A DNA stretch of 63,080 nucleotides, counting the filler. It is 4 parts of 4 records of this genome, joined end to end, with 100 filler letters (N's around TTAATTAATTAA, not from the genome) between each part and the next. Parts side by side here need not be neighbours in the genome. Positions count along the whole stretch, not along the records: positions 12,844 to 37,569 come from SRR31156797_1517; 3 more parts are not named here. One strand, written 5' to 3'. Shown here piece after piece: positions 1-39,061 of this stretch; the first letter of the stretch is position 1; each line of letters begins with the position of its first letter. The position numbers and the translations under genes are program-made. The notes below the pieces were generated by a model. It ran no database searches, was not told the DNA's origin, and worked only from the letters and a program-made list of their open reading frames with translations.

Positions 1-88
1 GCATGCAAAAACCTAACCGGACATCACTGATATTTTTATGTTTTACTACGTTGGTTTGAGACATTCTGAAGGGAAGAAGGAAAAGCCC

Positions 89-1120: not shown

Positions 1121-3202
1121 TTTAAACCGCTTTACAAGGGTCTTCAATCCAGTGGCCAATTCGGCCATCCGGGCAGCATCCCTGTTGATCTCTTCACTTC
1201 CGTCGGATACGGTTTTAGCCCCCTTGTTAACATCCATGATATCGCCTGCGATCCGGGATACCCCCCTGTTACTCTCAAGAACCGTATCACTGACATCATT
1301 GACCGATGCCGCCACCGAATTGATGTTGCCGGAGATCTCTTTTGTGACAGCCGATTGTTCTTCGATGGCCGCGGCAATGGTTGTGATCATTTCGTTCACA
1401 TCATTGATAACGGATGAAATTCCGGATATTTCCGTGGTGGTGGACTCCGCCGCCCTCTGGATTCCCGCGATTTTTGATTTGCTCCCGGTGGTCGCGCCCG
1501 CCGTCTGTTTTGCCAGTTCCTTGATCTCTGTCGCCACAATGGCAAACCCCCTTCCTGAACTTCCGGCCCGGGCCGCTTCTATGGTGGCGTTCAGCGCCAG
1601 CAGGTTTGTCTGTTCGGAGATCTCGGTGATGGTTTCGGTGATGGCGCTGATCTCCCGGGCCGCCGTCAGCAACCGGCTGACCTGATCGGTTACCTCCCGG
1701 GCCCGGCGGACCGTCTCGGTACTTATTCTGCTTGCATTTTCAGTATTGCCGGCAATTTCATTCACGGTCGCGTTCATCTCCTCCACGGAAGCGGCCACCG
1801 CCTTGACATTGTCAGAGGCGTTCTCCATGGAGGAAGCGATGTCATTGAAGGTCTTGCTCATGCCGTCGGCATCGGCGGAAAGGGAATCGGATTTCAGGGA
1901 GGTCGCCTGGCTGCTTTCGGCAATCCCGGTCGCCCCACCATGGATGGTGACGGACGCCTCGTAAATCCGCTCGGAGCTGCCGGAAATGTTACCCACCATG
2001 GCGTGAAGATGGTCCACAAACAGATTGAACCATCCGGCCAGCTCACCGGCCTCGTCCGTGGTCCTGACATTGAGCCGCCGGGTCAGGTCCCCGTCCCCCT
2101 GGGCAACTTCCTTCAATCCCCCGGTCACTTCCAGGACAGGTTTCATGAGCATGCCCGAAAACCGGATGGTCAGGGGAACGATCAATACAAGGCAACAGGA
2201 GAAGACCAGCCCCAGCAGCTTGAACATCTGAAACGTATTGTCCCAGATGATCCTGCCCGACCTGAGCACGGCAATGCCGCCTTCATGCCCAACGGCGGAA
2301 CGGAGGGGCAGATACCCCTGGAAATAGGTCTCTTCCCCCAGCCTGACGGTTCCCAGGACCATGGCCCGGCTGTTATCCCCGGCTGTCTCGGCCCTGGCGT
2401 ACCCGGGCAGGCTGCCCCGGACAAGATCTTTTCCGGCAAACAGATTCACATCCAGGCCCGTCATCTGGGTCATTGCGCTGATAAAGGCGCCGTCCAGTTC
2501 CCTGACCGCCACCACGGCCCCTACGACTTCAGATACAAAATCATCGGTCTGCGGATTGTAGCGTTCCGCGGTGACAGGCACACGAGAGGTCAGGGCCATG
2601 CGGCTGCCGATCCTTTTGATCTCCGACACCGGCTGGTCGGCCAATGGTCCGTCAAGGCGGACCGTCAAATCAAATCCGCTGACCCCCTCTGATTTTTGCC
2701 AATCCTTGGTCTCAAGGTTTTCCCCTTGCTCGAACACCATGTAATGGACAGTGGGCCGTGGAAGGGCGCAATAGAAGCCGGAGACAAGCCCGTTGTTCGC
2801 CCTTGCTTCCGAAAAAGCCGTCAGGACTCCGTCCCGGTCATACAGGCCTATCTTCCACAAACCGCAGGAGACAAGAGAATTGAACAGGATATGGGAAAGC
2901 TTTTTATAGGTGGTCCCGGTAATGGATATATCGCCGGTACCGCTGTACTCCATCAAAAATTTTATCTTACCGCCCACCTTGTTCATATCGAGCATCCGGC
3001 CGGCATCAACGGTCATCTTGGTCTGTTTTGCCTTAAGGTCGTTACGGATATTCCGACTGCCGGCTTCCAGGCTATGATAAAGAGCAGTCCGGTTCTGGCG
3101 GTAAAGCACAACGGATACAGCCAATGAAGAGGCCGCCATGACAGTACCGACAACCACCAGCACCCCAAGAGTAATCTTCTTCTTCAAATTCAACCGTCCC
3201 AT
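1115..3202 (-). CDS. Methyl-accepting chemotaxis protein (2 TM, periplasmic sensor, HAMP, MCP signalling domain)
   Basis: ISEQTNLLALNATIEAARAGSSGRGFAIVATEIKELAKQT hairpin signature; HAMP GDLTRRLNVRTTDEAGELAGWFN; two hydrophobic TM segments. Confidence 0.95.
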   Translation of the reverse strand: MGRLNLKKKITLGVLVVVGTVMAASSLAVSVVLYRQNRTALYHSLEAGSRNIRNDLKAKQTKMTVDAGRMLDMNKVGGKIKFLMEYSGTGDISITGTTYKKLSHILFNSLVSCGLWKIGLYDRDGVLTAFSEARANNGLVSGFYCALPRPTVHYMVFEQGENLETKDWQKSEGVSGFDLTVRLDGPLADQPVSEIKRIGSRMALTSRVPVTAERYNPQTDDFVSEVVGAVVAVRELDGAFISAMTQMTGLDVNLFAGKDLVRGSLPGYARAETAGDNSRAMVLGTVRLGEETYFQGYLPLRSAVGHEGGIAVLRSGRIIWDNTFQMFKLLGLVFSCCLVLIVPLTIRFSGMLMKPVLEVTGGLKEVAQGDGDLTRRLNVRTTDEAGELAGWFNLFVDHLHAMVGNISGSSERIYEASVTIHGGATGIAESSQATSLKSDSLSADADGMSKTFNDIASSMENASDNVKAVAASVEEMNATVNEIAGNTENASRISTETVRRAREVTDQVSRLLTAAREISAITETITEISEQTNLLALNATIEAARAGSSGRGFAIVATEIKELAKQTAGATTGSKSKIAGIQRAAESTTTEISGISSVINDVNEMITTIAAAIEEQSAVTKEISGNINSVAASVNDVSDTVLESNRGVSRIAGDIMDVNKGAKTVSDGSEEINRDAARMAELATGLKTLVKRFKL

Positions 3203-3900
3203 ATTTCCCCCGTCGTTTTACTTCCCTTGGTTTTTTTAAGAATCCAGGTCCAAGCCTGCATGAACATGCTGATTCCCCCCCCCAGGCAGAGGTAGATAGC
3301 CACCAGGGGGGAATCCATGGACCAGAAGGCATGGACGCTTCCAAAGGGAATAAGAATGTGTCCCCCGGGGGGAATACTGATGACGGGACCGCCTTTCAGG
3401 TGCCAGGTTCCCCTGCCGGACAGGAGATAAAGGCATTCCGAGGCCGGATGGGCGTGGGGAGGATAGTAAATGTTGGGACTGAGCAGCATCACCCCCACGG
3501 TGACGGTTGAATTGGTAAAAAGGCCGTCCGGACCGATCAATTCAAAGCAGGCGTAGTTATTTACAAAATCCTTGTTGACATTCTGCCCGCGGTATCCGGG
3601 CTCAACCAGCCACCGGAGAAACGGCGTCAGGTCTTCAAGGCATTGAACCAGATCCCGGAATCCCAGATCCCTGGCATTTTCCAGGGCCTTTTCCCAGTGC
3701 CGGACGGCCGATTTCAGCTGGGGCTCAAGCCCGGCGTAGGTGCCGAACTCCTTTTCCAACTGCGTGAATATTTCCATGATTTCATTGTACTCGGGTTCTT
3801 CCGGAAGAACGTCTTCCTTCAACCGCCGCTGAATAATCTCCAGAAACGCTTTTATGGAACCAAACACTTTTTCCTTATCTGACAAATCATTCCCCCCCAT
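3190..3900 (-). CDS. Cupin of the DddL/DddQ-like dimethylsulfoniopropionate lyase family
   Basis: FVNNYACFELIGPDG...VGVMLLSPNIYYPPHAHPASECLYLLSG...VHAF matches the DMSP-lyase cupin pattern (YPxHxHxxxE...H). ATG at 3900 follows a GGAG RBS; the longer ORF to 4143 overlaps the upstream ATPase gene. Confidence 0.7.
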   Translation of the reverse strand: MGGNDLSDKEKVFGSIKAFLEIIQRRLKEDVLPEEPEYNEIMEIFTQLEKEFGTYAGLEPQLKSAVRHWEKALENARDLGFRDLVQCLEDLTPFLRWLVEPGYRGQNVNKDFVNNYACFELIGPDGLFTNSTVTVGVMLLSPNIYYPPHAHPASECLYLLSGRGTWHLKGGPVISIPPGGHILIPFGSVHAFWSMDSPLVAIYLCLGGGISMFMQAWTWILKKTKGSKTTGEIWDG

Positions 3901-3931
3901 GTTAATGATCTCCGCAGTTGACGCCGGCAGG

Positions 3932-4660
3932 TCAAGCCGGCTGCTCGTCGGATATGCCGAGATACATCTTGCGAATATGATCGTTACCCAGAAGGTTGTC
4001 GCTGGCGTCTTCCATGGCGATCCGCCCGTGTTCCATGACATAGGCCCGGTCGGCATATCGAAGGGTGGTATCCACGTTCTGTTCCACAATGAGGACGGTG
4101 ACGTTTTCATCCCTGAGCTTGTCAATGGTTTCGAACACTGCAACCACGTTCTCCGGAGAAAGGCCCATGGAGGGTTCGTCCAGGATGATCATTTTCGGAT
4201 TACACATCAATCCCCGCCCAATGGCCAGCATCTGGCGCTCTCCGCCGCTCATGGTGCCGGCCAGCTGTTTCCGCCGCTCCTTGAGACGCGGAAAGAGATC
4301 GTAGACGTATTCCAGGTTGTTATCGATCCGGCTGCTGTCCTTGATGGTATAAGCACCCATGAGCAGGTTGTCCCTGACCGACATGGACAGAAACAGGTTC
4401 CGCTCTTCGGGAATAAAGGCAAGCCCCTGCTGGACCAGTAGGTGGGACTGCATGCCCGTGATATCTTTTTCCATGAACGACACGGCTCCGTTCATGGGCG
4501 GCAGAATACCGGTAAGGCACTTCAGGATCGTTGTCTTTCCGGCGCCGTTGGGACCGAGAATCGCCACCACTTCGCCCTTTGAAATTTTGATGGAAAGGTC
4601 CCAGATGATCTGAAGATGACCATAGCCCACATCTAAATTCTTTACTTCAAGCATATTCAC
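3932..4660 (-). CDS. ABC transporter ATP-binding protein, LivF-like
   Basis: Walker A GPNGAGKT, MSGGERQMLAIGRGL, LDEPSMGLSP, VEQN. Confidence 0.93.
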   Translation of the reverse strand: MNMLEVKNLDVGYGHLQIIWDLSIKISKGEVVAILGPNGAGKTTILKCLTGILPPMNGAVSFMEKDITGMQSHLLVQQGLAFIPEERNLFLSMSVRDNLLMGAYTIKDSSRIDNNLEYVYDLFPRLKERRKQLAGTMSGGERQMLAIGRGLMCNPKMIILDEPSMGLSPENVVAVFETIDKLRDENVTVLIVEQNVDTTLRYADRAYVMEHGRIAMEDASDNLLGNDHIRKMYLGISDEQPA

Positions 4661-4663
4661 TCC

Positions 4664-5392
4664 TTACAACTTTGCATTGGCCCCAAGATACGCCTTGGAT
4701 ACCACGGGATCTTCCGAGATTTCCCCAGGGGTCCCATCGGCGATTTTCCGTCCGAAATTCAAAACAGCGATCTGGTCACACACGCTCATGATCAATTTCA
4801 TGAGATGCTCCACGATCAGAATCGAAGTGCCGTTGTCCCGGATTCGCAGAATCAGGGATGTGATATCCACAAGCTCCGACGGGGTCAGGCCGGCCGCGAC
4901 CTCATCCAGGAACAGCAGTTTACAGTCCGTTGCAAGCGCCCGTGCAAGTTCCAGCATTTTCAACTGCATGGTATTGAGGTTCTCCGCCACCACATCATGG
5001 CCCATGGGAAACTCTACGAAATCAAGCATTTCAACTGCCCGTCTGCGGGCATCGTGGTCGCGGTGGCTCTTGCCGAACACCGACCCCACCATCACGTTTT
5101 CAAGCACGGTCATCTGGGGAAAGAACTTGACGATCTGGTAGGTCCTTGCCATGCCGAAATGGCAGCAGCGGTTGGCCTTGAATCCGGTAATATCCTTCCC
5201 GTCCAGGATGACCCGGCCCTTGGTGGGGGCATAGGTGCCCGCAATGCAGTTTTGAAACGTTGTCTTGCCCGCCCCGTTGGGACCGATCAAACCGAGAATT
5301 TCTCCCTTTTTCAAAGTGATCGACACATCCTCGACCGCCTTCAGGCCTCCAAAAAATTTACACAACCCCTGTGTTTCTAAAATGATACTCAT
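4664..5392 (-). CDS. ABC transporter ATP-binding protein, LivG-like
   Basis: FGGLKAV, GPNGAGKT, LDEVAAGL, VEHLM, C-terminal VSKAYLG. Confidence 0.93.
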   Translation of the reverse strand: MSIILETQGLCKFFGGLKAVEDVSITLKKGEILGLIGPNGAGKTTFQNCIAGTYAPTKGRVILDGKDITGFKANRCCHFGMARTYQIVKFFPQMTVLENVMVGSVFGKSHRDHDARRRAVEMLDFVEFPMGHDVVAENLNTMQLKMLELARALATDCKLLFLDEVAAGLTPSELVDITSLILRIRDNGTSILIVEHLMKLIMSVCDQIAVLNFGRKIADGTPGEISEDPVVSKAYLGANAKL

Positions 5393-5482
5393 CCATGCCC
5401 TCTATTTTTTCGGATATTTTCGCTCTCCAGCCGGAATACCGGTTGAAACAGGGGACCGGCAGAGCCGGCGCCCCTGAAAACT

Positions 5483-6775
5483 CTACTTCATGTTTGCCGG
5501 GATGGCCAGGTCGGCCGCTTTCCACTCGTCGGGCCAGATGATCTTTGCCTTACCGTCAAAATACTGGGTCACCGGGAAAATGTAGTATCCCTTGCCAACC
5601 ACCGGATCGGGGAAGGTGTCAGGGATGTACTTGTACTCTTCCATGAGCAGGCCGTCAGTAAAGGTGAGCTTGCCGGTCATGACCTGTTCCTCGGCACACC
5701 GCATCAGGGTTTCCGTGGTCAGTTCACCGTATTTTTCCAGGGTGGTTTTCAGCACCTTGATGAAAAACAGGGCCGTGTCGTGGCAGAGCCCGGCAGAGGA
5801 CGCCCCCGGCTCAAATCCGAACCGGGCCTTGAAATCATCCCGGAACTTGCGGGCCTCGGGGGTGGTCCACTGGGGAATCTGGTCCAGCACGTAGTCTGAG
5901 GCGTTTCCGGTCAGTTTGTACCACTCGCCGACCCAGCCGAGACCATCGGAAAGAATCAGGCTCTTGACGCCGATCTCCCGGCTCTGCTTGATAAAAGCGG
6001 ATACGGACGGAGGATCGGACATGGAACCGACGGCCACGGATACGCGTTTACGTTTAATCTTGGAGAGAAGGGGATAAAACTCAGTCTCACCCAACTGCAC
6101 ATACTCTTCCCCGACGACTTCCCACCCGGCTTCCTGAAACTGTTTCTTGACCGCACCGCCAAAGGCCCGTCCCCAGTCGTTGTCAACACCGTACACAAGC
6201 ACTTTCCTGGATTTGGGCTTCCATGTCCCGTTGGCGATGGCGGTCTCAAGGGACTCGATATAGCCGATGCTCAGCTTCTCGGCCAGGGGCCAGGTTTTAC
6301 CAACCCAGTATTTGTACTTTTCGGGATTGGAGTTGTACTTGTCGTTCATGATCTTGCCCGCACCAAAGCTGAAGAAATGGGGCAGCTTATATTTGGAAGC
6401 GACCTCCATGCAGGATGCGGAGACCCAGGAATGCCAGGTATTGTACCCCACATCGATCTTGTCCCGGACAATGGCCTTTTCATAGGCTTTTGCCGCTTTT
6501 TCCGCATCCGACTCCGAATCAACCCATACGAACTCCACCTTGTAATCGCCGATTTTCCAGCCGATTTCATCAAAGGCCATGGTAATGGAATTCTTAAACT
6601 CCTGCCCCACCCGGGAGGCCGGCCCGGTAAAGGGACCGATGGAACCGACCTTGAGGACCTTTTCAGCCGCCGAGGCGGAAAACGCCATGCCTGAAAGTAT
6701 CACGGCCGCCGCTATGACAAATGCAAGTCCCCTGGTTAATATGCCTGATCCAACTCTCTTTGATCTGTTTTTCAT
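5483..6775 (-). CDS. ABC transporter substrate-binding protein (LivJ/HAAT family)
   Basis: Signal peptide ending ASAA; KVGSIGPFTGPASRVG periplasmic-binding-protein type 1 start; lies among Liv-like permease and ATPase genes. Confidence 0.88.
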   Translation of the reverse strand: MKNRSKRVGSGILTRGLAFVIAAAVILSGMAFSASAAEKVLKVGSIGPFTGPASRVGQEFKNSITMAFDEIGWKIGDYKVEFVWVDSESDAEKAAKAYEKAIVRDKIDVGYNTWHSWVSASCMEVASKYKLPHFFSFGAGKIMNDKYNSNPEKYKYWVGKTWPLAEKLSIGYIESLETAIANGTWKPKSRKVLVYGVDNDWGRAFGGAVKKQFQEAGWEVVGEEYVQLGETEFYPLLSKIKRKRVSVAVGSMSDPPSVSAFIKQSREIGVKSLILSDGLGWVGEWYKLTGNASDYVLDQIPQWTTPEARKFRDDFKARFGFEPGASSAGLCHDTALFFIKVLKTTLEKYGELTTETLMRCAEEQVMTGKLTFTDGLLMEEYKYIPDTFPDPVVGKGYYIFPVTQYFDGKAKIIWPDEWKAADLAIPANMK

Positions 6776-6869
6776 CTGAATTTTTCTCCATTATTAGAAA
6801 CGCTGTTGTTTCAATTTATCTGTAAGAAAACTCACCTCAAGCCTTGTTTGGTATTTACGTCCTCCTTTT

Positions 6870-7910
6870 CTAGTGTTTTTTTATTGCCATCTCGCCCGGC
6901 ACATCCACGACATCAACGGCCTCTTGGAACTTCCCTGAAAAACGGCTGAGGATGTTTTCCCACAAGCCGGCCAGCCCCTTGGGATAGTAAATCATGACAA
7001 CGATCATCATGGCTCCGTACAGGATCAAACGAAACTCCATGAGATCCTTCATGAATTCCATGGCGGGAATCATGACCAGGGCGGCGGCAAAAGACCCCCA
7101 GATGGTTCCCCTGCCCCCGATATAGGCAATGGCCATGATCTCAACCGTATGGCTTGTATGCATCAAGGTGGGGGTCAGGATACCGATAAAATGAGCGTAA
7201 AAGCCCCCAAGAAGCCCGGCCAGGGCACAGGACACGGTGAAATTCATTACCTTGTACCGGGTGGCGTCCACCCCTGACGAGGCCGCGGCATCCAGGTCCT
7301 GTCCAATGGCCCTGAAGGCAAGGCCGATGTGGGACCGGGTAATGCAGACAAGCACAATATAGATCACGAGCACCATGACCAGTACGATGTAATAATAGGG
7401 CCAGTTTTTGACGCTCTCGAACAGCAGGGGAATGGTGATGCCGGCATACCCCTGGGTGAGATCCACCATGTTGCCCGTGGCGGACATGAGGGCCAGGGCC
7501 ACGAACCAGGTCATGCACGATGCAAAGATGCCGCCCAGCCGCAGGGTGAGAAGCCCCAGGCCAAACCCGAGAACCGCCGCCACAAGAGCGCCGAAGGGAA
7601 TGGTGATTAAAGGCGACCAGCCCAGTTTCACCACCAGCAGGCCGGAGGTGTATGCCCCCATGCCCATGAAGGCGGCATACCCGAAATTAACGATATTGAT
7701 GAAACCGGCCGTAAAATCAAAGGCCATGGCAAGGCCCGCAAACATGAGGGCCGAGATCAAAAGCCGCAGTATGAACTCATCATGTATGAACAGGGGAATC
7801 AGGGCGATCACCCCAAGAAGCCCCAGCCCCAGGGGACTCAGCCCCAGTTTTGACAGGCGTTGCTTCCACCCGCCGGTTATTGTATTCATGTTGTTTTTTT
7901 CCGTTTCCAT
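6870..7910 (-). CDS. Branched-chain amino acid type ABC permease, LivM-like
   Basis: NFGYAAFMGMGAY, GLAFRAIGQDLDAAASSGV, YIGGRGT; highly hydrophobic. Confidence 0.92.
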   Translation of the reverse strand: METEKNNMNTITGGWKQRLSKLGLSPLGLGLLGVIALIPLFIHDEFILRLLISALMFAGLAMAFDFTAGFINIVNFGYAAFMGMGAYTSGLLVVKLGWSPLITIPFGALVAAVLGFGLGLLTLRLGGIFASCMTWFVALALMSATGNMVDLTQGYAGITIPLLFESVKNWPYYYIVLVMVLVIYIVLVCITRSHIGLAFRAIGQDLDAAASSGVDATRYKVMNFTVSCALAGLLGGFYAHFIGILTPTLMHTSHTVEIMAIAYIGGRGTIWGSFAAALVMIPAMEFMKDLMEFRLILYGAMMIVVMIYYPKGLAGLWENILSRFSGKFQEAVDVVDVPGEMAIKKH

Positions 7911-7934
7911 GGTTAACCTCTCCCTTTGTTATTC

Positions 7935-8837
7935 CTATTCAACCGCACTTTTCACGCCGGAGTTTCCAAACAGTCCGCTGGGCTTGAACAGCAGAATCAG
8001 GATGATGATCGTAAGACTGATCACATCCTGCCACCCGCCGGAGAAATAGGAGTAGGTGATGGTTTCAAGCAGCCCCACGAGAAGGCCGCCGATGATGCTG
8101 CCCCCCACATTTCCCATGCCGCAGAGGATGAGCACGAACCATGACTTGTACAGGGGCTGAACCCCCATGGTGGGATAGGCCGGATTGATGGAAAGAAGGC
8201 AGGCGCCGGCAATACCGGCAAGCAGGGCGCTCAGGGCAAAGGTCAGGGTATGGATATAATTCAGGTCGATGCCCACGAGCCCGGCGCCGGTCTCATCCTG
8301 GGACACGGCCCGGATGGCGCGGCCCGTACGGGTTTTGTTCAGAAAAAAGATCAGGGAGGAGATGGAAATAACGGCAATGAGAAATCCCACTCCCCGGTCC
8401 ATGGAGATGGACATGGAGGAGATGCCACGTATGCGGCCTTCCCAGTACTGGGTAATCCCGTAATAGGTGCTGCCCCAGAAAAGCTTTACCGAATTCTGAA
8501 GGATGATGGAAATGCCCAGGGTAACAAGAAAGGAATTCATCAGCCACTGTTTTTTAGCCCGCTGGCGAAGGGGATAGAAAAACGCCTTTTCAAGGATGGC
8601 GCCAACGATAAAGGTCATCAAAGCCGCAAAAATCAGCGACGGGATGGGGCCAAGATGGAGAAAGGTAAAGGCGAAATACGCAAAATACGCCCCAAGCATA
8701 TAGAGCTCGCCATAGGCAAAATTGGCGATGTTCATCACCCCGAAAACCAGGGATAGCCCGACCGCCATGAGGGCATAGATTCCACCTCGCAATATGGCGG
8801 TGACAAGCAGATCCCACCATTCCACTAACAGTTCCAT
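7935..8837 (-). CDS. Branched-chain amino acid type ABC permease, LivH-like
   Basis: GGIYALMAVGLSLVFGVMNIANFAYGE, TGRAIRAVSQD, FKPSGLFG. Confidence 0.92.
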   Translation of the reverse strand: MELLVEWWDLLVTAILRGGIYALMAVGLSLVFGVMNIANFAYGELYMLGAYFAYFAFTFLHLGPIPSLIFAALMTFIVGAILEKAFFYPLRQRAKKQWLMNSFLVTLGISIILQNSVKLFWGSTYYGITQYWEGRIRGISSMSISMDRGVGFLIAVISISSLIFFLNKTRTGRAIRAVSQDETGAGLVGIDLNYIHTLTFALSALLAGIAGACLLSINPAYPTMGVQPLYKSWFVLILCGMGNVGGSIIGGLLVGLLETITYSYFSGGWQDVISLTIIILILLFKPSGLFGNSGVKSAVE

Positions 8838-8959
8838 AAAACACTCCTTTTAACAGCAATATTGATAATTTATCTTTACAGCGGCAAACGGACAGTCACG
8901 GATTTTCCTGGGCCCGGCCCGTCCTGAACGGATCAGAACGGTCGGCAGGCCCCCTTGTT

Positions 8960-9745
8960 TTATACATGGCCGTAGTAGTCCCTGTGGGCCACGACGGAAT
9001 AGGCATAGTCCAGCAGGGTTCCCCAACTGAAAACGGGCAGGTCGACCCGTTGCTGAACCGCCCTGGCAAAGGGCTGCATGCCCGTGCACTCGAGCATGAT
9101 GGCGCCGACATCCGGGTGTTCCCGGACCACGGTCTCGCAGGTTTTCACCATCTGCGCCTCGGCCTTGTCATAATAAATTTCCGGGCAGTCGGGCCGTTTT
9201 TCAGGATCCCAGAGATTGTCGAATTCCGTGCACCCGTACTCATCCTGGGCGCCGGCGATGACGATGTTCGAATCCGGATCGATGCCCACATTTCTCAGGT
9301 GGGTCTCCGTGAGGAACCGCTTCTGGGCGCAGACAATGCCCACCTTTTTTTTCGGTCCGATGATCTGCTGGATGAAGGGCACCTGGAGAAGGCTGGACAT
9401 GAAAGCCGGGATGTCCACGGCGCCGGCCACATCCTTCTGGAAATAGGCGAAGTAGCCGCATTCAGCCGCAATGGCGCGGCATCCCATACGCTCGAGCTTT
9501 TTTGCGGCCGCAAGGATCGGCTCCCGGCAGGGGGTCTTGTCCTGCTCCCACACCAGGGTGTGGTTGTCCACGCCCTCGCAGATCTCATACTGGATGGGAT
9601 AGGGAAAGGCGCTGGCGTTCCGGACATCCCCGGGGAACCCGGGATAGGCATCGTCCAGCACCATGATGCCGATGCCCATGCCGTAACAGGTGTGATTCTT
9701 TCGTGTCTTGATATAATTGATCGCCATATCACGGTTTAAATACAT
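8960..9745 (-). CDS. Aspartate/glutamate/hydantoin racemase superfamily protein
   Basis: PGDVRNA motif and the two catalytic-type cysteines AECGYF and LECTGM. Confidence 0.8.
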   Translation of the reverse strand: MYLNRDMAINYIKTRKNHTCYGMGIGIMVLDDAYPGFPGDVRNASAFPYPIQYEICEGVDNHTLVWEQDKTPCREPILAAAKKLERMGCRAIAAECGYFAYFQKDVAGAVDIPAFMSSLLQVPFIQQIIGPKKKVGIVCAQKRFLTETHLRNVGIDPDSNIVIAGAQDEYGCTEFDNLWDPEKRPDCPEIYYDKAEAQMVKTCETVVREHPDVGAIMLECTGMQPFARAVQQRVDLPVFSWGTLLDYAYSVVAHRDYYGHV

Positions 9746-9772
9746 GTTTCTCTCCTTTCTGAAATATCAATG

Positions 9773-11197
9773 TCAGGCAACCGCCGCCGGGAGTTCCAGG
9801 AGTTCCGGGGAGATCCCCAGGCCCAGGAGGAAATCCTTCAGTCCGGCCCTGGCGCCGGGATCCAGTTCCGGCTGCCTGTAGCCGCCCGCCATGGCCTCGG
9901 CCATGGCCGTAATGGCGGCCATATTATTCGGATCGTTCAATGTATCCGTACCGGGCCGGTTGTGGCTCAAGGGAGAAATGAACGGCACGGTCCTGCAATG
10001 TTTCATGGTGTGGGGGCTTGTGAGGAACTCACCGCCGGGCCCGGCCTTGCTGATGACGTCAAACCCGAGGGCGTCATCATCCATGGCCGGTCCCGCCATG
10101 AGATAATCGATCATGTCCATGATCTCGAGATCCACGATAAACTGTTCAAAGGACATGGCGCCGTAACTCTCGAGGATTCCGGCGGAGTGAAGAATGAAAT
10201 CGGTTCCGGAATCACAGGCCGACAACATGGAGAGCATGCTCTCGTACCCGCTCTGGACGGAGACGCACCTTGCGTCGTTGCTGGTGCCGCCGTTCCGTGA
10301 AGGCAACCCGTATTTCCGTGCCAGGGCCGAGCAATAGCGGGACTGGATGGCAAACCCGGGGGACCCGATGGAAATGCCCCCGGTGCGAAGGTCGGCGGTT
10401 GTCGCCTGGAGGCCGTAAATCACCGGCGTTCCCGGCCTGACCATCTGGGCGAAGGCGATGGCGGCCAGGGCTTCGGCATTGCCCTGGGCGATATTGCCGG
10501 CAAGGGTGACCGGACCGGTGGCGCCCGCCATGGGCCCGGGGGAAAGGATCAGTGCCTGGCCGTGGCCGGCAACGATCCGGATGGTGTTAAGTGCATTGGC
10601 ATCTACCTGGAGGGGACTGAGGGTGTTCACCAGGGTCAGGATCCTGGGTTTTTCAGTAAAGGACCGACGACCGTTGAAAAGGATCCGGCCCATCTCCATG
10701 ACCCGCTCAACCTCCGTGGCCGTGCCCGGGATTCCCATGATCACCTTATCGGAGAGGTTAACCGTGGCCCAGAGCATGAGGGGCGTGGCAAAGGCCGCCG
10801 GAATATCCCCGGGCTGGACCAGGATGCCGCCGTTGATCTTGAAACGGTCGCTCTGGTGCACAAGCTTCACGAACTTCACATAATCATCGAAACAGGCGGT
10901 CCGTTTCGCGCCGTCCCGGTCAACCATGGAAGGGCAGCCGTAACCGGCGGCATAATGGGAGGTCCCCGCCCCCAGGGTCATGTCGTGTTCGGGATTCCTT
11001 GCAAGCAGGGTAAACCGGCCAGGGGCCTTTCCCACGAAATCCATCACCTGGTCTTCGGTAAAAAAGGCCGTGTCTCCAGATAATTTGACACCGTTCTTCG
11101 CCAGGATCTCCAGGGCCCGGGGATCCAGGAAACGGATCCCCACCCGTTGGAGAATCTCCATGGACGTCCGGTGGATCTTGTCGACGTTCTCTTTCAC
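9773..11197 (-). CDS. MttB (trimethylamine methyltransferase) superfamily corrinoid methyltransferase, no pyrrolysine
   Basis: KIHRTSMEILQRVGI, GATGPVTLAGNIAQGNAEALA, PGTPVIYG, GPGGEFL..HTMKH; uninterrupted ORF. Confidence 0.9.
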   Translation of the reverse strand: MKENVDKIHRTSMEILQRVGIRFLDPRALEILAKNGVKLSGDTAFFTEDQVMDFVGKAPGRFTLLARNPEHDMTLGAGTSHYAAGYGCPSMVDRDGAKRTACFDDYVKFVKLVHQSDRFKINGGILVQPGDIPAAFATPLMLWATVNLSDKVIMGIPGTATEVERVMEMGRILFNGRRSFTEKPRILTLVNTLSPLQVDANALNTIRIVAGHGQALILSPGPMAGATGPVTLAGNIAQGNAEALAAIAFAQMVRPGTPVIYGLQATTADLRTGGISIGSPGFAIQSRYCSALARKYGLPSRNGGTSNDARCVSVQSGYESMLSMLSACDSGTDFILHSAGILESYGAMSFEQFIVDLEIMDMIDYLMAGPAMDDDALGFDVISKAGPGGEFLTSPHTMKHCRTVPFISPLSHNRPGTDTLNDPNNMAAITAMAEAMAGGYRQPELDPGARAGLKDFLLGLGISPELLELPAAVA

Positions 11198-11206
11198 GGG
11201 ATCTCC

Positions 11207-12643
11207 CTATTCGGATTTGCGCCCTTCCAGGTCGGCGGCGATCTTGTCCAGTTGGGCAAGGATCCCGGCGTCCAGCTCCGGCACTTTGTGATTGGCAAGG
11301 ATATCGTCCATTTTTGCGTGGATATTTTTCCTCACCTCGGATTCATCGGGATTTTTCATCTTTCTGCTGAACAGGTCGGGATAAAAGATGTTCCGGAAGT
11401 TTTTCATGGTGTGGGGCTCATTGAGGTATGCACCGGCCGGGCCGACCTTTTCGATCATTTCAAGGACGAGGTCGTCGGTATCCACGGATACGCCCCGGGT
11501 ATAATGTTTCAGCATCTCGATGATCTCGTTGGAGAGCACCACCAGTTCGGGATTCACACTGTTGCAATGATCGGAAACCCCCACGTCATGGATGATGTTG
11601 GCCCGGGACAGCAATGTGGAGAAAATTTCCATGGTGGCCTCGGCGGTGGCCTGCTCATCCAGGAATTTCGCATCGGTGCAGCCGGCGGTGCCGTAAAAGG
11701 GAAGACCGTAGGAATTGACGATCTCGGAGGCCGCCGCCACCAGGAGATGAAACTCCACGGCGCCGTAGCTGCCGATGGTGGTCCGCATGTCCATTATCGA
11801 GGGCATGGCGCCGTAAATAAAGGGAGCGCCTTCGCTAACCAGCTGGGTCAGCACAAGGCCGGTCAGGGCCTCGGCATTGCACTGGGCAAGGGTGCCGGCA
11901 AAACTCAAGGGAGAGGTGCCGCCCATCATGCAATAGGGCATATAAACCACGGGAATCCGGTTCAGGGCGCTGATATACAGTTTTTCCGTGCTCTCCTCGG
12001 GATGGGTCAGGGGCGGAATGGGCTCGCAATAGTTGAAAATAAAGGGTTTTTCCTGGAGCTTGCCAAGGCCCCCGGCCACGACGGCGGCGATATCGATCAC
12101 TTCCTGGAGGGAATCGATGTCGTTGGTGGAAAAATTGATGGTCTTGCTGAAGTGCTTGACCGTCTCGATAAAAGAGATCTGGGTCTGGATATCGGGCCTG
12201 ACATCCTTGGACATGCCGACACTCAGAACAAAATGGATGTTCTCGAGGGCATCGGCCAGGGTACACATGGTCTTTGTATCCTCTTTCAGAAAATTCCTCA
12301 CCTTGCCGGTGCCGGGATCCACAAATTCCAGCTGATCCGAATGGGTACCGAAGTAAACCTGATTCTCCCGGTTGATGGTCATGGCGACCTCGCCGGCCCG
12401 GTTATAGAGCAAAAGCTCCTTTGGCACCGTTTCAAGCGCCTTGTTCACAAGGGCCTCGGGAATTTTGACAAGGCCGTTTTCATCCACCTGGCACCCGGCC
12501 TTGGCAAAGGCCTCGAGCCCCCGCTTGCCGCCCACCTTCATGCCCACCTTTTCCATGAGGTAGATGCTTGCCTCATGGATCTTCTTGATTTTCTCGGGAC
12601 CGAGAATATTAAAATCAATATTTCGCTGTGCTGCTATTCCCAT
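11207..12643 (-). CDS. MttB superfamily corrinoid methyltransferase, no pyrrolysine (second, divergent paralog)
   Basis: KIHEASIYLMEKVG, GGTSPLSFAGTLAQCNAEALTG, GAPFIYG, VGPAGAYLNEPHTMKNFR; ATG at 12643 follows GGAGG. Confidence 0.9.
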   Translation of the reverse strand: MGIAAQRNIDFNILGPEKIKKIHEASIYLMEKVGMKVGGKRGLEAFAKAGCQVDENGLVKIPEALVNKALETVPKELLLYNRAGEVAMTINRENQVYFGTHSDQLEFVDPGTGKVRNFLKEDTKTMCTLADALENIHFVLSVGMSKDVRPDIQTQISFIETVKHFSKTINFSTNDIDSLQEVIDIAAVVAGGLGKLQEKPFIFNYCEPIPPLTHPEESTEKLYISALNRIPVVYMPYCMMGGTSPLSFAGTLAQCNAEALTGLVLTQLVSEGAPFIYGAMPSIMDMRTTIGSYGAVEFHLLVAAASEIVNSYGLPFYGTAGCTDAKFLDEQATAEATMEIFSTLLSRANIIHDVGVSDHCNSVNPELVVLSNEIIEMLKHYTRGVSVDTDDLVLEMIEKVGPAGAYLNEPHTMKNFRNIFYPDLFSRKMKNPDESEVRKNIHAKMDDILANHKVPELDAGILAQLDKIAADLEGRKSE

Positions 12644-12743
12644 CTCTTCCTCCAAAGGGGCAGGCCTGACCTGACGGGCAGGCCTGCCGGACCTGAATTT
12701 CTCTGCTATGTTGCCGTATAAACGCCTTTTACAGGGATTTTAC

Positions 12744-12843
12744 NNNNNNNNNNNNNNNNNNNNNNNNNNNNNNNNNNNNNNNNNNNNTTAATTAATTAAN
12801 NNNNNNNNNNNNNNNNNNNNNNNNNNNNNNNNNNNNNNNNNNN
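12744..12843. other. Artificial contig linker (N44-TTAATTAATTAA-N44)
   Basis: N runs around a six-frame stop cassette; abrupt switch from GC-rich to AT-rich DNA. Confidence 0.98.
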
Positions 12844-17235: not shown

Positions 17236-18618
17236 TTATTTTCTAAAATTTTTGACAAACTGTTCAACCTCCGGAACACCTCCCTGATACAACAAATATC
17301 CATTATATGGTTCTCGTTTGGTGATTTCATCATTAATAGGTGTTTCCATGATTTTAATTACCTCTTCACGATCCTTGGTTTGTCCCAATGCCCAACCAAG
17401 TTTAATGTAGGCTGCTTCAGGTAGCATATTGTCCAAAGGAATTACACCCATTGCCATTAAATCACGACCAGTATCGTAAACAAACATATGTGTATAACCC
17501 CAAAGAGTTTGTACAGTCATAAAAATATTAACTCCTTTTTCCACTGCTCGTTTTATTGCTGGATATACAGGTTTGTTCACATGTCCGAGACCAGTTCCAG
17601 CAATTATTATCCCTTTGTATCCGCAATCAACCAAAGCGTCAATTACATCGGGTTGCATGTTAGGATAGTAATACAGAATGGTAACTTTTTCTTCGAAAAA
17701 TGGTAGGATGGTTACATTCCTATCTTTTCTTCGATGATTGTACTTTTTCTTTATTGCTTTTACCCCATTCCTGGTTACAGTTGCCAATGGTGTATCTCCA
17801 AGAGTTCTAAATGTTGAACGATAACTGGAGTGCATTTTTCTTACTCTGGTTCCTCGGTGAAGGAAACCATATTCGTCTGAAGTAGGTCCAAACATACAAA
17901 CCATCACTTCAGCAATATCACCATGTCCGGCAGCTATTGCTGAATGCATAAGATTAAGTGCGGCATCGGAAGAAGGACGATCCGATGATCTTTGCGAACC
18001 AACCAATACAATAGGCACAGGTGAATTTTGAACCATGTAAGTTAAAGCTGCTGCCGTATGATGTAAGGTATCGGTACCATGTGCAATAATAATTCCTTCA
18101 ATACCATTCTCAATTTCTTTACCAATTGCAATTGCAAGAGCGATGTATTGTTTTGGTCCCATATTTTCACTAAAAACAGCAAAAACTTTTTCCGTTGTTA
18201 AGTTGCAGATATCGGCTAATTCTGGCACAGAACCGTATAATTCCCCTGGAGAAAATGCTGGAATCACAGCACCTGTTCTGTAATCTAATCGGGAAGCTAT
18301 TGTTCCTCCGGTACCAAATAATTTTACAGCTGGCTGACCTTCAGTGTAAGGAAATTCTTTTTCAGGAACTTTATAATTGGCTTTTTTATAACCGGTTTCC
18401 TTCATCTCCTCAATTGTATTCACATTTATTCCAATATTATATCCTGTGGAAATTTTGAGAACAATATGTTGATCATCATCATTTTCAGCACGAGGTAATA
18501 TGGTACCGTCGAATTCTCCTCTTGTTGTTAATATGTGAGTTTTACCCCATACTCTTACATTGTATTTTTTTAGGGTGGCTAATGCTTTTCCCTTATATCC
18601 TTGAAACAAATCTTCCAT
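17236..18618 (-). CDS. gatD: Glu-tRNA(Gln) amidotransferase subunit D (archaeal-type, asparaginase-like)
   Basis: GatD-specific N-terminal domain (GTILPR...HIVLKISTGYNIGI); GTGGTIASRLDYRTGAV, HGTDT, GSQRSSDRPSSDA, HRGTRVRKMH. Confidence 0.9.
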   Translation of the reverse strand: MEDLFQGYKGKALATLKKYNVRVWGKTHILTTRGEFDGTILPRAENDDDQHIVLKISTGYNIGINVNTIEEMKETGYKKANYKVPEKEFPYTEGQPAVKLFGTGGTIASRLDYRTGAVIPAFSPGELYGSVPELADICNLTTEKVFAVFSENMGPKQYIALAIAIGKEIENGIEGIIIAHGTDTLHHTAAALTYMVQNSPVPIVLVGSQRSSDRPSSDAALNLMHSAIAAGHGDIAEVMVCMFGPTSDEYGFLHRGTRVRKMHSSYRSTFRTLGDTPLATVTRNGVKAIKKKYNHRRKDRNVTILPFFEEKVTILYYYPNMQPDVIDALVDCGYKGIIIAGTGLGHVNKPVYPAIKRAVEKGVNIFMTVQTLWGYTHMFVYDTGRDLMAMGVIPLDNMLPEAAYIKLGWALGQTKDREEVIKIMETPINDEITKREPYNGYLLYQGGVPEVEQFVKNFRK

Positions 18619-20591
18619 TATTGCAGACGTTTATCAATGATTTGACGTAAATCTCTTAATTCAATATTCCCAATAGCTTGTTTGTGCAATTGACCCATAA
18701 TCCAGTTGGCAGCATCTTTTTTCTCTTCTGATTTTCGAATGTCTTTGTATTTTTCAGCTAAAAAATCGATGGGTGCTGCTAGTTCTTCCATGCTTCGCTT
18801 TTTAAATTTTAAGGCTGTAAGCATTGAATTGAATTCCATTTTTGGGTGATCGTACAAAATAGGAAGTAAATATCTTGCAATATTTGGATGTAATTTTTGT
18901 TCGTGAATAAATTTAAAAAGACCTATTAACTTTCGGTTATTGAGTTCGGCATTTGTTCTTTTTTTGCCAATAATGTTTTTAAATGTGTGTCCGAAGAAGA
19001 TAGAAATTCGTTTTGGATCAAATTTAAAACGAGTGTATATTTCTTCGATTACCGGATATAAATTTTTGCTTAAAATAAAATGATAAGCATCTACAGGAAC
19101 TCCCCATTTTACTAATAAATTAATTCTATCTGATGTATCTTGAGGCAGATCTTTTCGTAACTCGTCAATATATGTGTCTGATAGTGGTATTGGTGCAGAA
19201 TCAGTATCAGGATACATTCTGTCAGCGCCAGGTAATACTCTTTCAAAGATAGTTGTACCATCTATTAGAGATTTTCTTGTTTCATTTGGAACACCATCGA
19301 ACACCATCAGGCAACGTTCATCAATAGTTTCTATAGCAGTTTTAACATCTGCTTCGTCACCCCAAATAATTAATTGAGCATCTTCATCAGTTGCCTGTAA
19401 TTCACTTTTTATTTTATTGAAATCATCTTTGGATAATGGAAAATCATCTTGTTCGTTGTGAATCATATTTGGCAACTCCAAACAAGCTATAACCTTTAAT
19501 CTTTGAGATATTTCATTTGCAAATACTTGTCCTGGTTGAGTAAAGTGAGATAATAATCCTTTAAACTTAGCTAAGTTTATGGCAACAATTTTATGCTTTT
19601 TATCTTTGCAATCTATCAGTGGCTGGTAAGAGAAATTGAAATCGTGAATATCCAATTCAGAGTATTTTATTTTCCACTCTTCTTTTGTTATTCTTTCTAA
19701 TAATAGTTTTCGGATATGCAATAAAGCCCATTGACGAAAAGCTTCGTTATGTGACAATTCAGGAATCCATTTGTTATGAGCAACGCCTTTAATTTCAACT
19801 CTGGATCCTCCTCTGCAGCTCACATTAACATCTTCGCGACCAGCTCCCATTCCTGTTCGAACCAATCCAGTACTTCTGTTTAAAAATCGGATGTATTCAG
19901 CGGCTTCGCGGAGTTCGTCCGGAGTATTTAATTCAGGAGCAGTTACCGTTTCAATTAAAGGTGTACCTAATCGATCAGTTTTGTACCATCTTTCATGAGC
20001 AATATCTGCTATTTCACGACAAGAATCTTCTTCGATACTTAGCTGAATGATATTTACCTTTTTATTGCTAAGTTGTATGTGTCCATTAACACCTAGAATT
20101 GCAGTTCTTTGAAAACCGGTAGGAATGCTACCATCAAGATATTGCTTTCGGGTAATGTGCACTTCACCAACTATATTCAATTTGCACATAAGAGATATTT
20201 TTAGAGCAATCCCCAATGCTTCATGATTGATTTTAAAAGGTGGTGTGTCATCTACTTCGTAGGTACAAGCAGTCTCGTTGTTAATTCTGTAAATAATGTT
20301 CTTACGGGTTTTAAATTCCATAAGAGCAGTACCATCGTATCCGCCTAGTTCGCTCATGGCAGGTCGCATGTGGCGAATTACTTCAGCATCGTAATCTTCA
20401 TTTGTCTGGAAAACTCCGCAAGGACAATGGCAAAACAACTTTTCTTTGGTTGCAAGTTGTTGGTGAACTTCTAAACCCGACATAAAGCCAATTCGGCGGT
20501 AATCTTCAGGCTTTGCATACCTGCGATCTACATAGCCAATTTGTTGTCGGGAGAGTTCGTAATTTGAGTTGGGTTTAATCTTTGTACTCAT
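18618..20591 (-). CDS. gatE: Glu-tRNA(Gln) amidotransferase subunit E (archaeal-type)
   Basis: GLEVHQQL..KLFCHCP, RPAMSELG, DGSIPTGFQRT, DRLGTPLIE, LPGADRMYPDTD and the GatE-type AspRS-like insertion; stop overlaps the gatD start (TAATG). Confidence 0.9.
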   Translation of the reverse strand: MSTKIKPNSNYELSRQQIGYVDRRYAKPEDYRRIGFMSGLEVHQQLATKEKLFCHCPCGVFQTNEDYDAEVIRHMRPAMSELGGYDGTALMEFKTRKNIIYRINNETACTYEVDDTPPFKINHEALGIALKISLMCKLNIVGEVHITRKQYLDGSIPTGFQRTAILGVNGHIQLSNKKVNIIQLSIEEDSCREIADIAHERWYKTDRLGTPLIETVTAPELNTPDELREAAEYIRFLNRSTGLVRTGMGAGREDVNVSCRGGSRVEIKGVAHNKWIPELSHNEAFRQWALLHIRKLLLERITKEEWKIKYSELDIHDFNFSYQPLIDCKDKKHKIVAINLAKFKGLLSHFTQPGQVFANEISQRLKVIACLELPNMIHNEQDDFPLSKDDFNKIKSELQATDEDAQLIIWGDEADVKTAIETIDERCLMVFDGVPNETRKSLIDGTTIFERVLPGADRMYPDTDSAPIPLSDTYIDELRKDLPQDTSDRINLLVKWGVPVDAYHFILSKNLYPVIEEIYTRFKFDPKRISIFFGHTFKNIIGKKRTNAELNNRKLIGLFKFIHEQKLHPNIARYLLPILYDHPKMEFNSMLTALKFKKRSMEELAAPIDFLAEKYKDIRKSEEKKDAANWIMGQLHKQAIGNIELRDLRQIIDKRLQ

Positions 20592-21206: not shown

Positions 21207-22007
21207 TTATTTCGTTAAATACAATAAATCAGTTATTTGTTTGGTTATTAACTTTCGCATAGCTGCATCCTGTTTAGATTTAATATCCATATTTAGTGCG
21301 AAAAAATAAACATTGTCATTTTTTTCGATGTAACCTACATACCAACCAATTTGACGCTCTACTCTTGCTGCCCAACCAGTTTTGGCTCTAATCGTGTAGT
21401 TGGGATTTTTCTCAACAATCATGATATCTTTTACTATTTCCTGATTTTGTTTTGAAAAAGGTAGTTCATTCAAATAAAGACGTTTTAAAAAATCAATTTG
21501 TTGATTTGCACTTATTCGAATTTCACCATTCAACCAAAAAGTATCAATATTACCTCCTATATTTTTATTTCCATAGTTGGCAGCTTTCACCCAATGTAAC
21601 ATCTTTTCTTCACCAATACGTCTGGCTAATTCCTGATAAAACCAAACTACTGAGTATTTTATTCCAGATTTTAAATCGTGATCTCTATTCCACTCATTTA
21701 CGAAGCGCTTTTTTTCGTCCCATTTAATGATTTCATTCTCATCTGTAATAACTTTGGTTTCCAGGGCAATCATCGAATTAATGATTTTAAAAGTTGAAGC
21801 TGGCAAAAAAACAGAATCTAATCGTACAGAATTATAATCCAATGATTTGTTGTTTTTAAAATCATGAATGATAAAACAACCTATAGTATTTTCTTTCTCA
21901 AAAATCTTTTGAATATCACTTGTTGTGAATCGTTCAAGAACTGATTTTTTCGGAATATCACAACCGATAAATGTTAATAAAATGGATAGAAGGATAATAT
22001 TTCTCAT
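21207..22007 (-). CDS. Class D (OXA-like) beta-lactamase, probable lipoprotein
   Basis: PASTFK, YSVVW, YGN, FWL and KTG motifs; lipobox-like FIGC. ATG at 22007 preferred over the overlapping upstream start. Confidence 0.85.
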   Translation of the reverse strand: MRNIILLSILLTFIGCDIPKKSVLERFTTSDIQKIFEKENTIGCFIIHDFKNNKSLDYNSVRLDSVFLPASTFKIINSMIALETKVITDENEIIKWDEKKRFVNEWNRDHDLKSGIKYSVVWFYQELARRIGEEKMLHWVKAANYGNKNIGGNIDTFWLNGEIRISANQQIDFLKRLYLNELPFSKQNQEIVKDIMIVEKNPNYTIRAKTGWAARVERQIGWYVGYIEKNDNVYFFALNMDIKSKQDAAMRKLITKQITDLLYLTK

Positions 22008-22011
22008 GAAT

Positions 22012-22899
22012 TTAAGCACTTAACAATTGACAATCTTGTTTTTTGTAAATGAACCAAAATAGGATAATAGATGCTAAACAAAGCAAGCTGGCAAGTAATG
22101 ATCCTTCGAAACCAAATTTACCACCAGTAAGTAATTTACTGCCAGTTATGGTTTGAGAAATTAAATTGTCGGTATTTGTTCCGCTAACTTCAAAACCAAA
22201 AATTGGTCCTTGAAAAAAGTTCCAGCTAAAATGTAAAGCCAATGGAAACCATAAGTTTTTTGTGAAAATATAACCAATTCCCAATAAGATTCCAGCAAGG
22301 AAAATATTAGTAACACCTACAATTGAAACGCTTGGATTAAGTAGGTGTAGTATTGTGAAAAATAAGGAAGATAGAATCAAAGCAATGTATCTATTCATTG
22401 AATCCATAAAGTTTGGAAGAATATATCCGCGTACAAACACCTCTTCGTTTACTGATACAAGCGTAAATAAAAATACGGATTGCAATAGACTTGCAAAACT
22501 AAAATGAATTGAATCAATTGTTAGATTACCGTTCGCCCATAAAAGGATTGTACCTAATCCCATCATTATAAATCCTGCAAGTAATCCATAAAGGATATTT
22601 TTAGACTGATTTTTTAGCGAAAATCCTAACTCGATGAATGCTTTTCGATCAATATATTTAGTGAAAATCCAAACAATAAATAAGGTGCCAAGTGTTCCTG
22701 AAAATTGAGTTGTTAGCATCAATCCATCTGACATATTTACATTTTGTAGGCTTTCTAAATTTAGATTTCCGGTAATTGCATTATGCAGAATTAAGCCAAT
22801 TAGCTGAAAAATACCAGTGGCAATAAAGAATGGGATTATAATAAGTAATGCACGTAACCAGCCTTTTTTAATAGCTGGGTTTTGGATTGATTCATTCAT
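22012..22899 (-). CDS. CPBP (Abi/CAAX) family intramembrane glutamic endopeptidase
   Basis: EEVFVRGY, FTILH, HFSWN, GFEG motifs; multiple TM segments. Confidence 0.88.
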   Translation of the reverse strand: MNESIQNPAIKKGWLRALLIIIPFFIATGIFQLIGLILHNAITGNLNLESLQNVNMSDGLMLTTQFSGTLGTLFIVWIFTKYIDRKAFIELGFSLKNQSKNILYGLLAGFIMMGLGTILLWANGNLTIDSIHFSFASLLQSVFLFTLVSVNEEVFVRGYILPNFMDSMNRYIALILSSLFFTILHLLNPSVSIVGVTNIFLAGILLGIGYIFTKNLWFPLALHFSWNFFQGPIFGFEVSGTNTDNLISQTITGSKLLTGGKFGFEGSLLASLLCLASIILFWFIYKKQDCQLLSA

Positions 22900-37569: not shown

Positions 37570-37669
37570 NNNNNNNNNNNNNNNNNNNNNNNNNNNNNNN
37601 NNNNNNNNNNNNNTTAATTAATTAANNNNNNNNNNNNNNNNNNNNNNNNNNNNNNNNNNNNNNNNNNNN
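37570..37669. other. Artificial contig linker
   Basis: N44-TTAATTAATTAA-N44. Confidence 0.98.
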
Positions 37670-37747
37670 GTTACCAATATCAAAAAAACGGTAACGACGA
37701 TAACGAAATGGTTGGTGTACTTGGAAATATAGGCAGATTGTTTTCAT
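37670..37747 (-). CDS. Glycoside hydrolase family 57, 5' fragment truncated by contig end
   Basis: MKTICLYFQVHQPFRYRRYRFFDIGN contains the GH57 xHQP motif; directly downstream of the glycosyltransferase. Confidence 0.75.
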
Positions 37748-39060: not shown

Positions 39061-39061
39061 A

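Follow-up and report, generated by a model that had tools for sequence, protein, structure and literature searches.

The two-subunit amidotransferase GatDE has been termed an archaeal signature protein (PMC2330236, 2008) and has been said to occur in archaea only (PMC8007984, 2021), and reviews to 2022 still describe it as archaea-only. This restriction has been used in arguments on the gene content of LUCA (the last universal common ancestor) and on the archaeal lack of glutaminyl-tRNA synthetase (GlnRS), as put forward in PMC2330236 and PMC9499178. According to PMC2330236, a catalytic Thr nucleophile and a Thr-Asp-Lys triad define the active site of GatD, His15, Glu157 and Glu184 are the essential Mg ligands in GatE of M. 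thermautotrophicus, and the archaeal enzyme recognises the A1-U72 pair of its tRNA and rejects extra D-loop bases. Here we describe a gatE-gatD operon in a 63,080-nucleotide stretch of DNA (hereafter the window), on a contig whose host is a genome of Marinifilum (marine Bacteroidales). The window operon is itself an ordinary member of a bacterial GatE clade; its value lies in that clade and in the pattern of co-occurrence with GlnRS. The original prediction, made by a model from the letters alone, held that automated annotation might already label such genes and that no functional description was known. Indeed, the NCBI databases already name bacterial proteins GatE, and full-text searches of the literature gave, among the papers listed, no title or abstract on bacterial GatDE.

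The operon comprises the following features:

18618..20591, minus strand: gatE, tRNA-dependent kinase/amidotransferase subunit, 657 aa, with a cradle domain, an insertion of ~160 aa and a YqeY-like tail
17236..18618, minus strand: gatD, asparaginase-fold glutaminase subunit, 460 aa, with the GatD N-terminal domain
18616..18620, minus strand: TAATG stop/start overlap from gatE to gatD, junction sequence caaTAATGgaa
17203..17230, minus strand: terminator-like hairpin (17230-17209) of 9 bp with 5 G-C pairs, plus TTTTTT, 6 nt past the gatD stop

The stop codon of gatE and the start codon of gatD have one base in common, and the two genes are predicted to be translationally coupled within one operon; both the overlap and the terminator had been read correctly in the original prediction. 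Terminator-like sites are not in excess across the region (2 found, 2.8 expected). Both genes are covered, with an identity of 90-100%, by RNA-library contigs from four marine-sediment runs (two studies), with DNA carry-over possible, and two of these contigs cross the gatE/gatD junction (X2 record 13, 18432-18722; X1 record 4, 18497-18647). This coverage is partial, and the uncovered operon bins and the uncovered DUF2059 gene are uninformative. The pairing of the two genes recurs in both of the Bacteroidota lineages distinguished below: in all 11 loci of the Marinifilum type, and in the second type, where 13 of 15 loci have gatD directly after gatE. The two exceptions are a locus at a contig edge and a locus in a single genome with an ankyrin-repeat gene between gatE and gatD (L119, G198:C87, 2699-3565).

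Both proteins pass the models built for their families. GatD scores 494.9 bits against TIGR02153 (cut-off 324) and 493.1 bits against PRK04183 (cut-off 310), and its Pfam domains are GatD_N (44.9 bits, cut-off 25.7), Asparaginase and Asparaginase_C. Similarly, GatE reaches 471.7 bits on NF003107 (cut-off 456) and 419.5 bits on TIGR00134 (cut-off 319.55), and it stays below all GatB models, of which the best gives 137.5 bits (cut-off 338). The proteins thus do not group with GatB and plain asparaginases, an outcome named beforehand as one that would overturn the identification. In Pfam, GatE matches GatB_N over residues 38-475 (438 residues over 274 profile positions) and GatB_Yqey over residues 538-656. 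Both subunits align over their full length with two solved archaeal GatDE complexes, 2D6F and 1ZQ1: GatE to residues 2-618 of 2D6F chain C, with scores of 288.6 and 270.8 bits against 2D6F and 1ZQ1, and GatD to chain A of both 2D6F and 1ZQ1, with scores of 372.7 and 383.7 bits. The alignment to 2D6F GatE runs through the insertion without a break, whereas GatB chains match in two separate stretches on either side of it. The claim of an insertion resembling that of aspartyl-tRNA synthetase (AspRS) therefore stands as to length and alignment, but the match to the Pfam GAD family is weak (14.2 bits, cut-off 23.4).

The catalytic residues are in place. GatD carries GTGGT (102), HGTDT (180) and RKMH (260), so that its predicted motifs are present in the translation together with the predicted N-terminal domain; GTGGT, HGTD and RKMH are identical to 1ZQ1 and 2D6F. 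In an alignment of 26 bacterial GatD proteins the Thr, Thr-Asp and Lys motifs are intact throughout, with variation only at the residue after HGTD. For GatE, the predicted GLEVH, IEED, PLIE and GRED can each be found in the translation, and alignment to 2D6F places the Mg ligands at H43, E187 and E214. Among 43 bacterial and 83 archaeal representatives H43 is conserved in 98% and 99%, respectively, and both glutamates in 100%. The same residue occurs at ≥90% in both clades in 66 alignment columns, and 26 more are conserved in bacteria only. Nine of these latter columns lie between residues 74 and 97 (H74, P77, Y85, T88, L90, M91, F93, K94, K97), forming a bacteria-specific patch that is variable in archaea. 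The earlier impression that some motifs depart from the archaeal form holds in part: within RKQYLDGSIP, Q150 is specific to bacteria, but R148, K149, D153, G154 and S155 are common to archaea. That this is a real, functional GatDE we regard as practically certain, its identity and functionality being as secure as sequence analysis permits.

The relationships of GatE were examined in trees. A search of 1.84 billion representatives returned 588 proteins at E <= 1e-30, and the tree set was composed of 118 of the best 150 (those of 560-720 aa, 32 shorter or longer proteins being dropped), the window protein and 7 named Bacteroidota, giving 126 rows. FastTree divides this set into clades of 43 and 83 rows with support 100. 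Ten representatives of each were looked up: three of those in the smaller clade are named, all bacterial (Deltaproteobacteria twice, CSSED10-310), and five of those in the larger, all archaeal (Heimdallarchaeota, Thorarchaeota, Hodarchaeales, Parvarchaeota/Jingweiarchaeum and Thermoplasmatota). Relatives of the Deltaproteobacteria GatE at 47-68% identity bear the labels Aminicenantes, Desulfaltia, Bradymonadales, KSB1, Krumholzibacteria, Calditrichaeota, Ignavibacteriae and Planctomycetes, which stem from the search, outside the tree, and as labels of metagenome bins may be wrong. One GatE labelled 'Omnitrophica WOR_2 bacterium' (P0107) falls inside the Bacteroidota subclade and is probably a mis-binned contig.

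Trees were rooted with GatB of Bacteroidota genomes as outgroup. A 94-row set, in which 8 GatE sequences out of the 15 from the phylum sample and 6 GatB loci out of 12 were included, places all 46 bacterial rows in a single clade (SH-aLRT 100), and the same is true of all 19 bacterial rows of a 45-row set (100/100). Bacterial GatE monophyly is solid, and this comparison with archaeal and bacterial homologs, which the original prediction had proposed, upholds its view of an old, ameliorated bacterial lineage: the operon is resident, within a monophyletic bacterial clade. Two Bacteroidota lineages are found in it, the Marinifilum type on a long stem (0.58-0.61) and a second type elsewhere. The position of the root is less clear-cut. 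A Heimdallarchaeota sequence adjoins the bacterial clade in the free searches (support 96, 97, 100/97), and for the 45-row set archaea are monophyletic in none of 200 bootstrap trees, yet a tree constrained to archaeal monophyly is equally good (delta lnL 0.13, p-AU 0.499; p 0.815 against the quick tree). A sister relationship to Heimdallarchaeota, and hence an Asgard donor, is accordingly not secure. We infer that free and constrained trees differ only in the attachment of the long outgroup branch; descent from an Asgard-like donor and a position as sister to all archaea are equally supported (approximately unbiased (AU) test, p = 0.50).

In Marinifilum the operon is resident, in a conserved gene order. 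Proteins of its contig are 92-100% identical to those of locus L001 of an uncultured Marinifilum sp., save one at 72%; window GatE is 99% identical to a GatE from an uncultured Marinifilum sp. (contig of 135.7 kb), and 81-83% identical to its counterparts in four named species (M. fragile, M. breve, M. flexuosum and M. caeruleilacunae) and in a closed Marinifilum chromosome of 4.76 Mb. The order porin, MltF-like, NUDIX, gatD, gatE, DUF2059, class-D beta-lactamase-like, CAAX protease, GDH is kept in all ten Marinifilum loci (L001-L010), a few genes being missing at locus ends or left as unmatched open reading frames. GatD is 92-94% identical across the genus, similar to GDH, while neighbours reach 64-80%. 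Ratios of nonsynonymous to synonymous substitution (dN/dS, Nei-Gojobori) are 0.019-0.027 for gatD and 0.026-0.062 for gatE, while gdh lies at 0.008-0.029 and the NUDIX and DUF2059 genes on the flanks at 0.08-0.24; dS is unsaturated in the comparison with L001 and near saturation between species, and three saturated pairs give no ratio. Both genes are under strong purifying selection, as tight as that on an enzyme of core metabolism.

Two rival explanations can be judged against these data. That it might be a decaying relic without function, as the lack of GatE in half of the order could suggest, has next to no chance of being right: the frames are intact, all catalytic residues are present, RNA-library contigs cover the genes, and dN/dS values of 0.02-0.06, as tight as those of gdh, refute it. 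The other explanation is an artefact or a recent import, that is, archaeal DNA mis-assembled or mis-binned, or a fresh island. The window does mix contigs of 33-55% GC from different organisms, but the operon sits within a single contig that is uniform in composition, the nearest archaeal GatE representatives are only 29-39% identical, and bacterial GatE is monophyletic with 100% support. Since the gene order is the same in cultured Marinifilum species and in the closed chromosome, mis-assembly with archaeal DNA, which the original prediction had named as a possible flaw, is excluded; this explanation is refuted and its probability is negligible. The bacterial GatDE is therefore genuinely resident and selectively maintained.

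Its distribution was surveyed in 401 sampled genomes of the phylum and in 301 from the order to which the Marinifilum genome is assigned in the classification used. GatE exceeds the cut-off in 16 of the former and in 139 of the latter (46%; 141 at E <= 1e-30), and among the control genomes only the four archaea gave GatE matches. GatB is present in none of the five Marinifilum-type hosts and in 14 of the 15 second-type hosts, against a background of 341/401 in the phylum and 17/301 in the order; GatA is over its cut-off in none of the five Marinifilum-type hosts. We considered GatDE as compensation for the loss of GatCAB and rejected it: GatE and GatB are unassociated in the order, where GatB occurs in 8 of 141 GatE-positive and 9 of 160 GatE-negative genomes, and in the phylum as well. 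A single in-frame stop codon (TAA or TGA) is present in each of eight GatE matches (G484, G574, G509, G503, G620, G622, G466 and G198). In G198 the gatE open reading frame is nevertheless complete (635 aa), and there the stop is probably located shortly upstream of the actual start codon.

We favour, with a probability of roughly 55%, the reading that GatDE is an accessory or rescue tRNA-dependent amidotransferase acting on Glu-tRNA(Gln) beside GlnRS. As suggested by the conserved catalytic residues, GatE would use its tail and cradle domains to bind the aminoacyl-tRNA and would phosphorylate the side-chain carboxylate with Mg-ATP; GatD would free ammonia from Gln or Asn, and the tunnelled ammonia would amidate the activated carboxylate, so that Glu-tRNA(Gln) would yield Gln-tRNA(Gln). 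Such an enzyme could clear Glu-tRNA(Gln) formed by error of glutamyl-tRNA synthetase (GluRS) or under particular conditions, or could sustain Gln-tRNA at low free glutamine. In the holoenzyme the two subunits would form an alpha2-beta2 complex. That amidation by GatDE is tRNA-dependent is likely, while the odds that Glu-tRNA(Gln) is its main substrate are evenly balanced. In support of this role, GatE retains both the YqeY-like tRNA-binding tail and the insertion. Moreover, the weak 1-72 pair and 7-nt D-loop by which host tRNA(Gln) differs from tRNA(Glu) are the kinds of features by which amidotransferases discriminate, as reported in PMC2330236.

Several observations weigh against a role on Glu-tRNA(Gln). 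The inventory of synthetases and GatCAB that had been suggested for the source genome was made in related GatE-positive genomes (5 of the Marinifilum type and 15 of the second type): beside the GatB counts given above, GlnRS (glnS) exceeds its cut-off in all of them (5/5 and 15/15), and so does asparaginyl-tRNA synthetase (AsnRS; 5/5 and 15/15). Each host has one bacterial GluRS, and all 19 full-length copies (a partial copy in G005 was omitted) have Arg at the position of T. thermophilus Arg358. The change Arg358Gln turns the discriminating T. thermophilus GluRS non-discriminating (PMC2978374), and the same change is without such effect in H. pylori GluRS1 (PMC3927822). The host GluRS would thus be of the discriminating type, although the rule is lineage-dependent and the assignment suggestive only, and little Glu-tRNA(Gln) is predicted to be formed. 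With GlnRS, AsnRS and a discriminating-type GluRS in all hosts checked, GatDE is not the sole route to Gln-tRNA. Of the two options in the original prediction, Gln-tRNA made in the archaeal manner or a repurposed enzyme, the former can thus not be read as an exclusive route. Furthermore, 151 of the 301 order genomes have neither GatE nor GatB (by cross-reading of two lists), no tRNA gene was found in the 19 loci scanned (up to ~8 kb on each side of gatE), and no conserved neighbour indicating a substrate in the 15 second-type loci. Finally, host tRNA(Gln) is without the archaeal A1-U72 identity pair. In the closed Marinifilum chromosome, where at least 79 tRNA matches were typed (150 of 440 candidates scored), the two tRNA-Gln(UUG) genes among the matches listed both have U1-A72 and a 7-nt D-loop, so that the original prediction's check of the 1-72 pair turned up no archaeal A1-U72. 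The same chromosome has tRNA-Glu with G1-C72 and an 8-nt D-loop, tRNA-Asp with G1-C72 and tRNA-Asn with U1-A72, and no dedicated tRNA partner was found among the tRNA matches listed.

These observations leave room for other substrates. GatDE could have been repurposed to amidate Asp-tRNA(Asn) or another misacylated tRNA and so partly replace the GatCAB that most of the order has lost. In favour of this are the scarcity of GatB (only 17/301 in the order, none in the five Marinifilum-type hosts), the bacteria-specific conserved patch at residues 74-97, the long stem (0.58-0.61) of the Marinifilum-type subclade, and the fact that Marinifilum tRNA(Gln) and tRNA(Asn) both have U1-A72, which the archaeal first-pair filter, as characterised in PMC2330236, would not separate. 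However, with AsnRS in 20/20 hosts and AsnB in 5/5 Marinifilum-type hosts tRNA-dependent Asn synthesis is not needed, GatE occurs independently of GatB (8/141 vs 9/160 in the order; 14/16 vs 341/401 overall in the phylum), and GatE retains the insertion domain, which was modelled to clash with non-discriminating AspRS (ND-AspRS) according to PMC2330236; we consider this repurposing improbable. A role away from tRNA is less plausible still, whether the target of amidation is the carboxylate of a different carrier or metabolite or the enzyme serves mainly as a regulated asparaginase/glutaminase. The patchy distribution (46% of the order) and the presence of GlnRS, AsnRS and discriminating-type GluRS, which leave no canonical need in sight, might be taken to suggest it, but the YqeY-like tail and the entire cradle have been kept and are conserved, the pairing of GatD with GatE persists in 13/15 and 11/11 loci, no biosynthetic neighbour is conserved, and archaeal GatD, according to the same source (PMC2330236), is inactive without its tRNA substrate. 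Cutting across these distinctions, it is possible, if rather doubtful, that bacterial GatDE does not synthesise Gln-tRNA(Gln) in the archaeal sense at all and is a distinct, dispensable amidotransferase, for rescue or proofreading or for another aminoacyl-tRNA, kept in about half of an order in which direct charging of tRNA(Gln) and tRNA(Asn) seems to be available to all members. The accessory role on Glu-tRNA(Gln) remains the reading that we prefer.

The window is composite. Four contigs are separated by three N-run/TTAATTAATTAA linkers at 12744-12843, 37570-37669 and 56413-56512:

1-12743: contig 1, 54.8% GC
12844-37569: contig 2, the gatDE-bearing Marinifilum contig, 24.7 kb, 33.2% GC, with N/TTAATTAATTAA linkers as its edges
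37670-56412: contig 3, 35.9% GC
56513-63080: contig 4, 52.2% GC

Three linkers and differing GC make it unsafe to treat the window as a single chromosome. The claim of AT-rich Bacteroidota flanks is true within the 24.7 kb contig (GC of 0.35 for the operon region and 0.332 for the contig) but not beyond it. Contig 1 has no meaningful match in the two Marinifilum genomes compared. Contig 3 is collinear with the Marinifilum chromosome at 1,805-1,814 kb, ~12 kb downstream of gatDE there; as its DNA identity to the same two genomes is only 66-74%, it comes from another, related member of the Bacteroidales present in the sample. The contigs derive from different organisms, and the gatDE finding concerns contig 2 alone.

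Some features of the loci and host genomes may be recorded here. A class-D beta-lactamase-like protein of 270 aa (21207-22019, minus strand; Pfam Transpeptidase, 146 bits) is encoded three genes upstream of gatE, and nine of the ten Marinifilum loci retain it, with identities of 63-92%. Neighbours of gatDE are otherwise sporadic, with glnS and an ammonium transporter seen once each, NUDIX twice counting the window, and PhoH/PIN with aldehyde dehydrogenase five times. The glnS case (L117, G058:C45:503000-520000), in which the gene directly adjoins gatD-gatE in convergent orientation, comes from one second-lineage genome and is the only one of its kind, as a Gln-tRNA gene neighbour, among the 15 second-type loci. 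In Marinifilum, glnS and the single gltX adjoin convergently, with tRNA-Cys just upstream of glnS (L014/L020, G001:C1:1886760-1890926), and the glnS-gltX pairing is likewise seen in G002-G005 and in several second-lineage hosts (e.g. G046, G306, G158). The closed Marinifilum chromosome also carries seven tandem, identical tRNA-Lys(UUU) genes at ~110-nt spacing (L053/L057, G001:C1:218338-219072).

A large, old bacterial clade undermines the archaea-only status of GatDE. Should the root fall on the bacterial stem (AU p = 0.50), GatDE would have been present in early Bacteria, and its standing as an archaeal signature in arguments on LUCA would be wrong. The constant coexistence of GatDE with GlnRS, AsnRS and discriminating-type GluRS raises the question of its substrate, which is testable in the cultured M. 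fragile and M. flexuosum.

Among known systems, the GatCAB retained by Deinococcus, Thermus and Bdellovibrio supplies asparagine. AsnB is found in 5/5 Marinifilum-type hosts, so that this rationale is not obviously applicable to GatDE. The resemblance lies in the retention itself, since in those bacteria, too, an amidotransferase is kept beside GlnRS and AsnRS (PMC4206432). With GatCAB in general the bacterial enzyme shares a paralogous kinase/amidotransferase subunit, GatE and GatB both having a YqeY-like tail (PMC2330236), and GatCAB acts, as GatDE would, on misacylated tRNA in which the first base pair is weak. By contrast, window GatE gives only 137.5 bits on the best GatB model (cut-off 338), GatB is without the insertion, and the ammonia donor of GatDE is of the asparaginase fold instead of the GatA amidase, with gatC not needed.

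The closest counterpart is archaeal GatDE (M. thermautotrophicus, 2D6F; P. abyssi, 1ZQ1). Both have the same two subunits with the same domain order, align over their full length and agree in their Mg ligands and in the catalytic residues Thr, Thr-Asp and Lys, and the window proteins pass equivalog models built on archaea. Unlike the archaeal enzyme, bacterial GatDE resides in hosts with GlnRS, AsnRS and a discriminating-type GluRS, whereas no archaeal species encodes GlnRS according to PMC9499178; its host tRNA(Gln) has U1-A72 and not A1-U72; its presence in 46% of the order marks it as dispensable at that level; and window GatE belongs to a separate, monophyletic bacterial clade with a patch of its own at residues 74-97.

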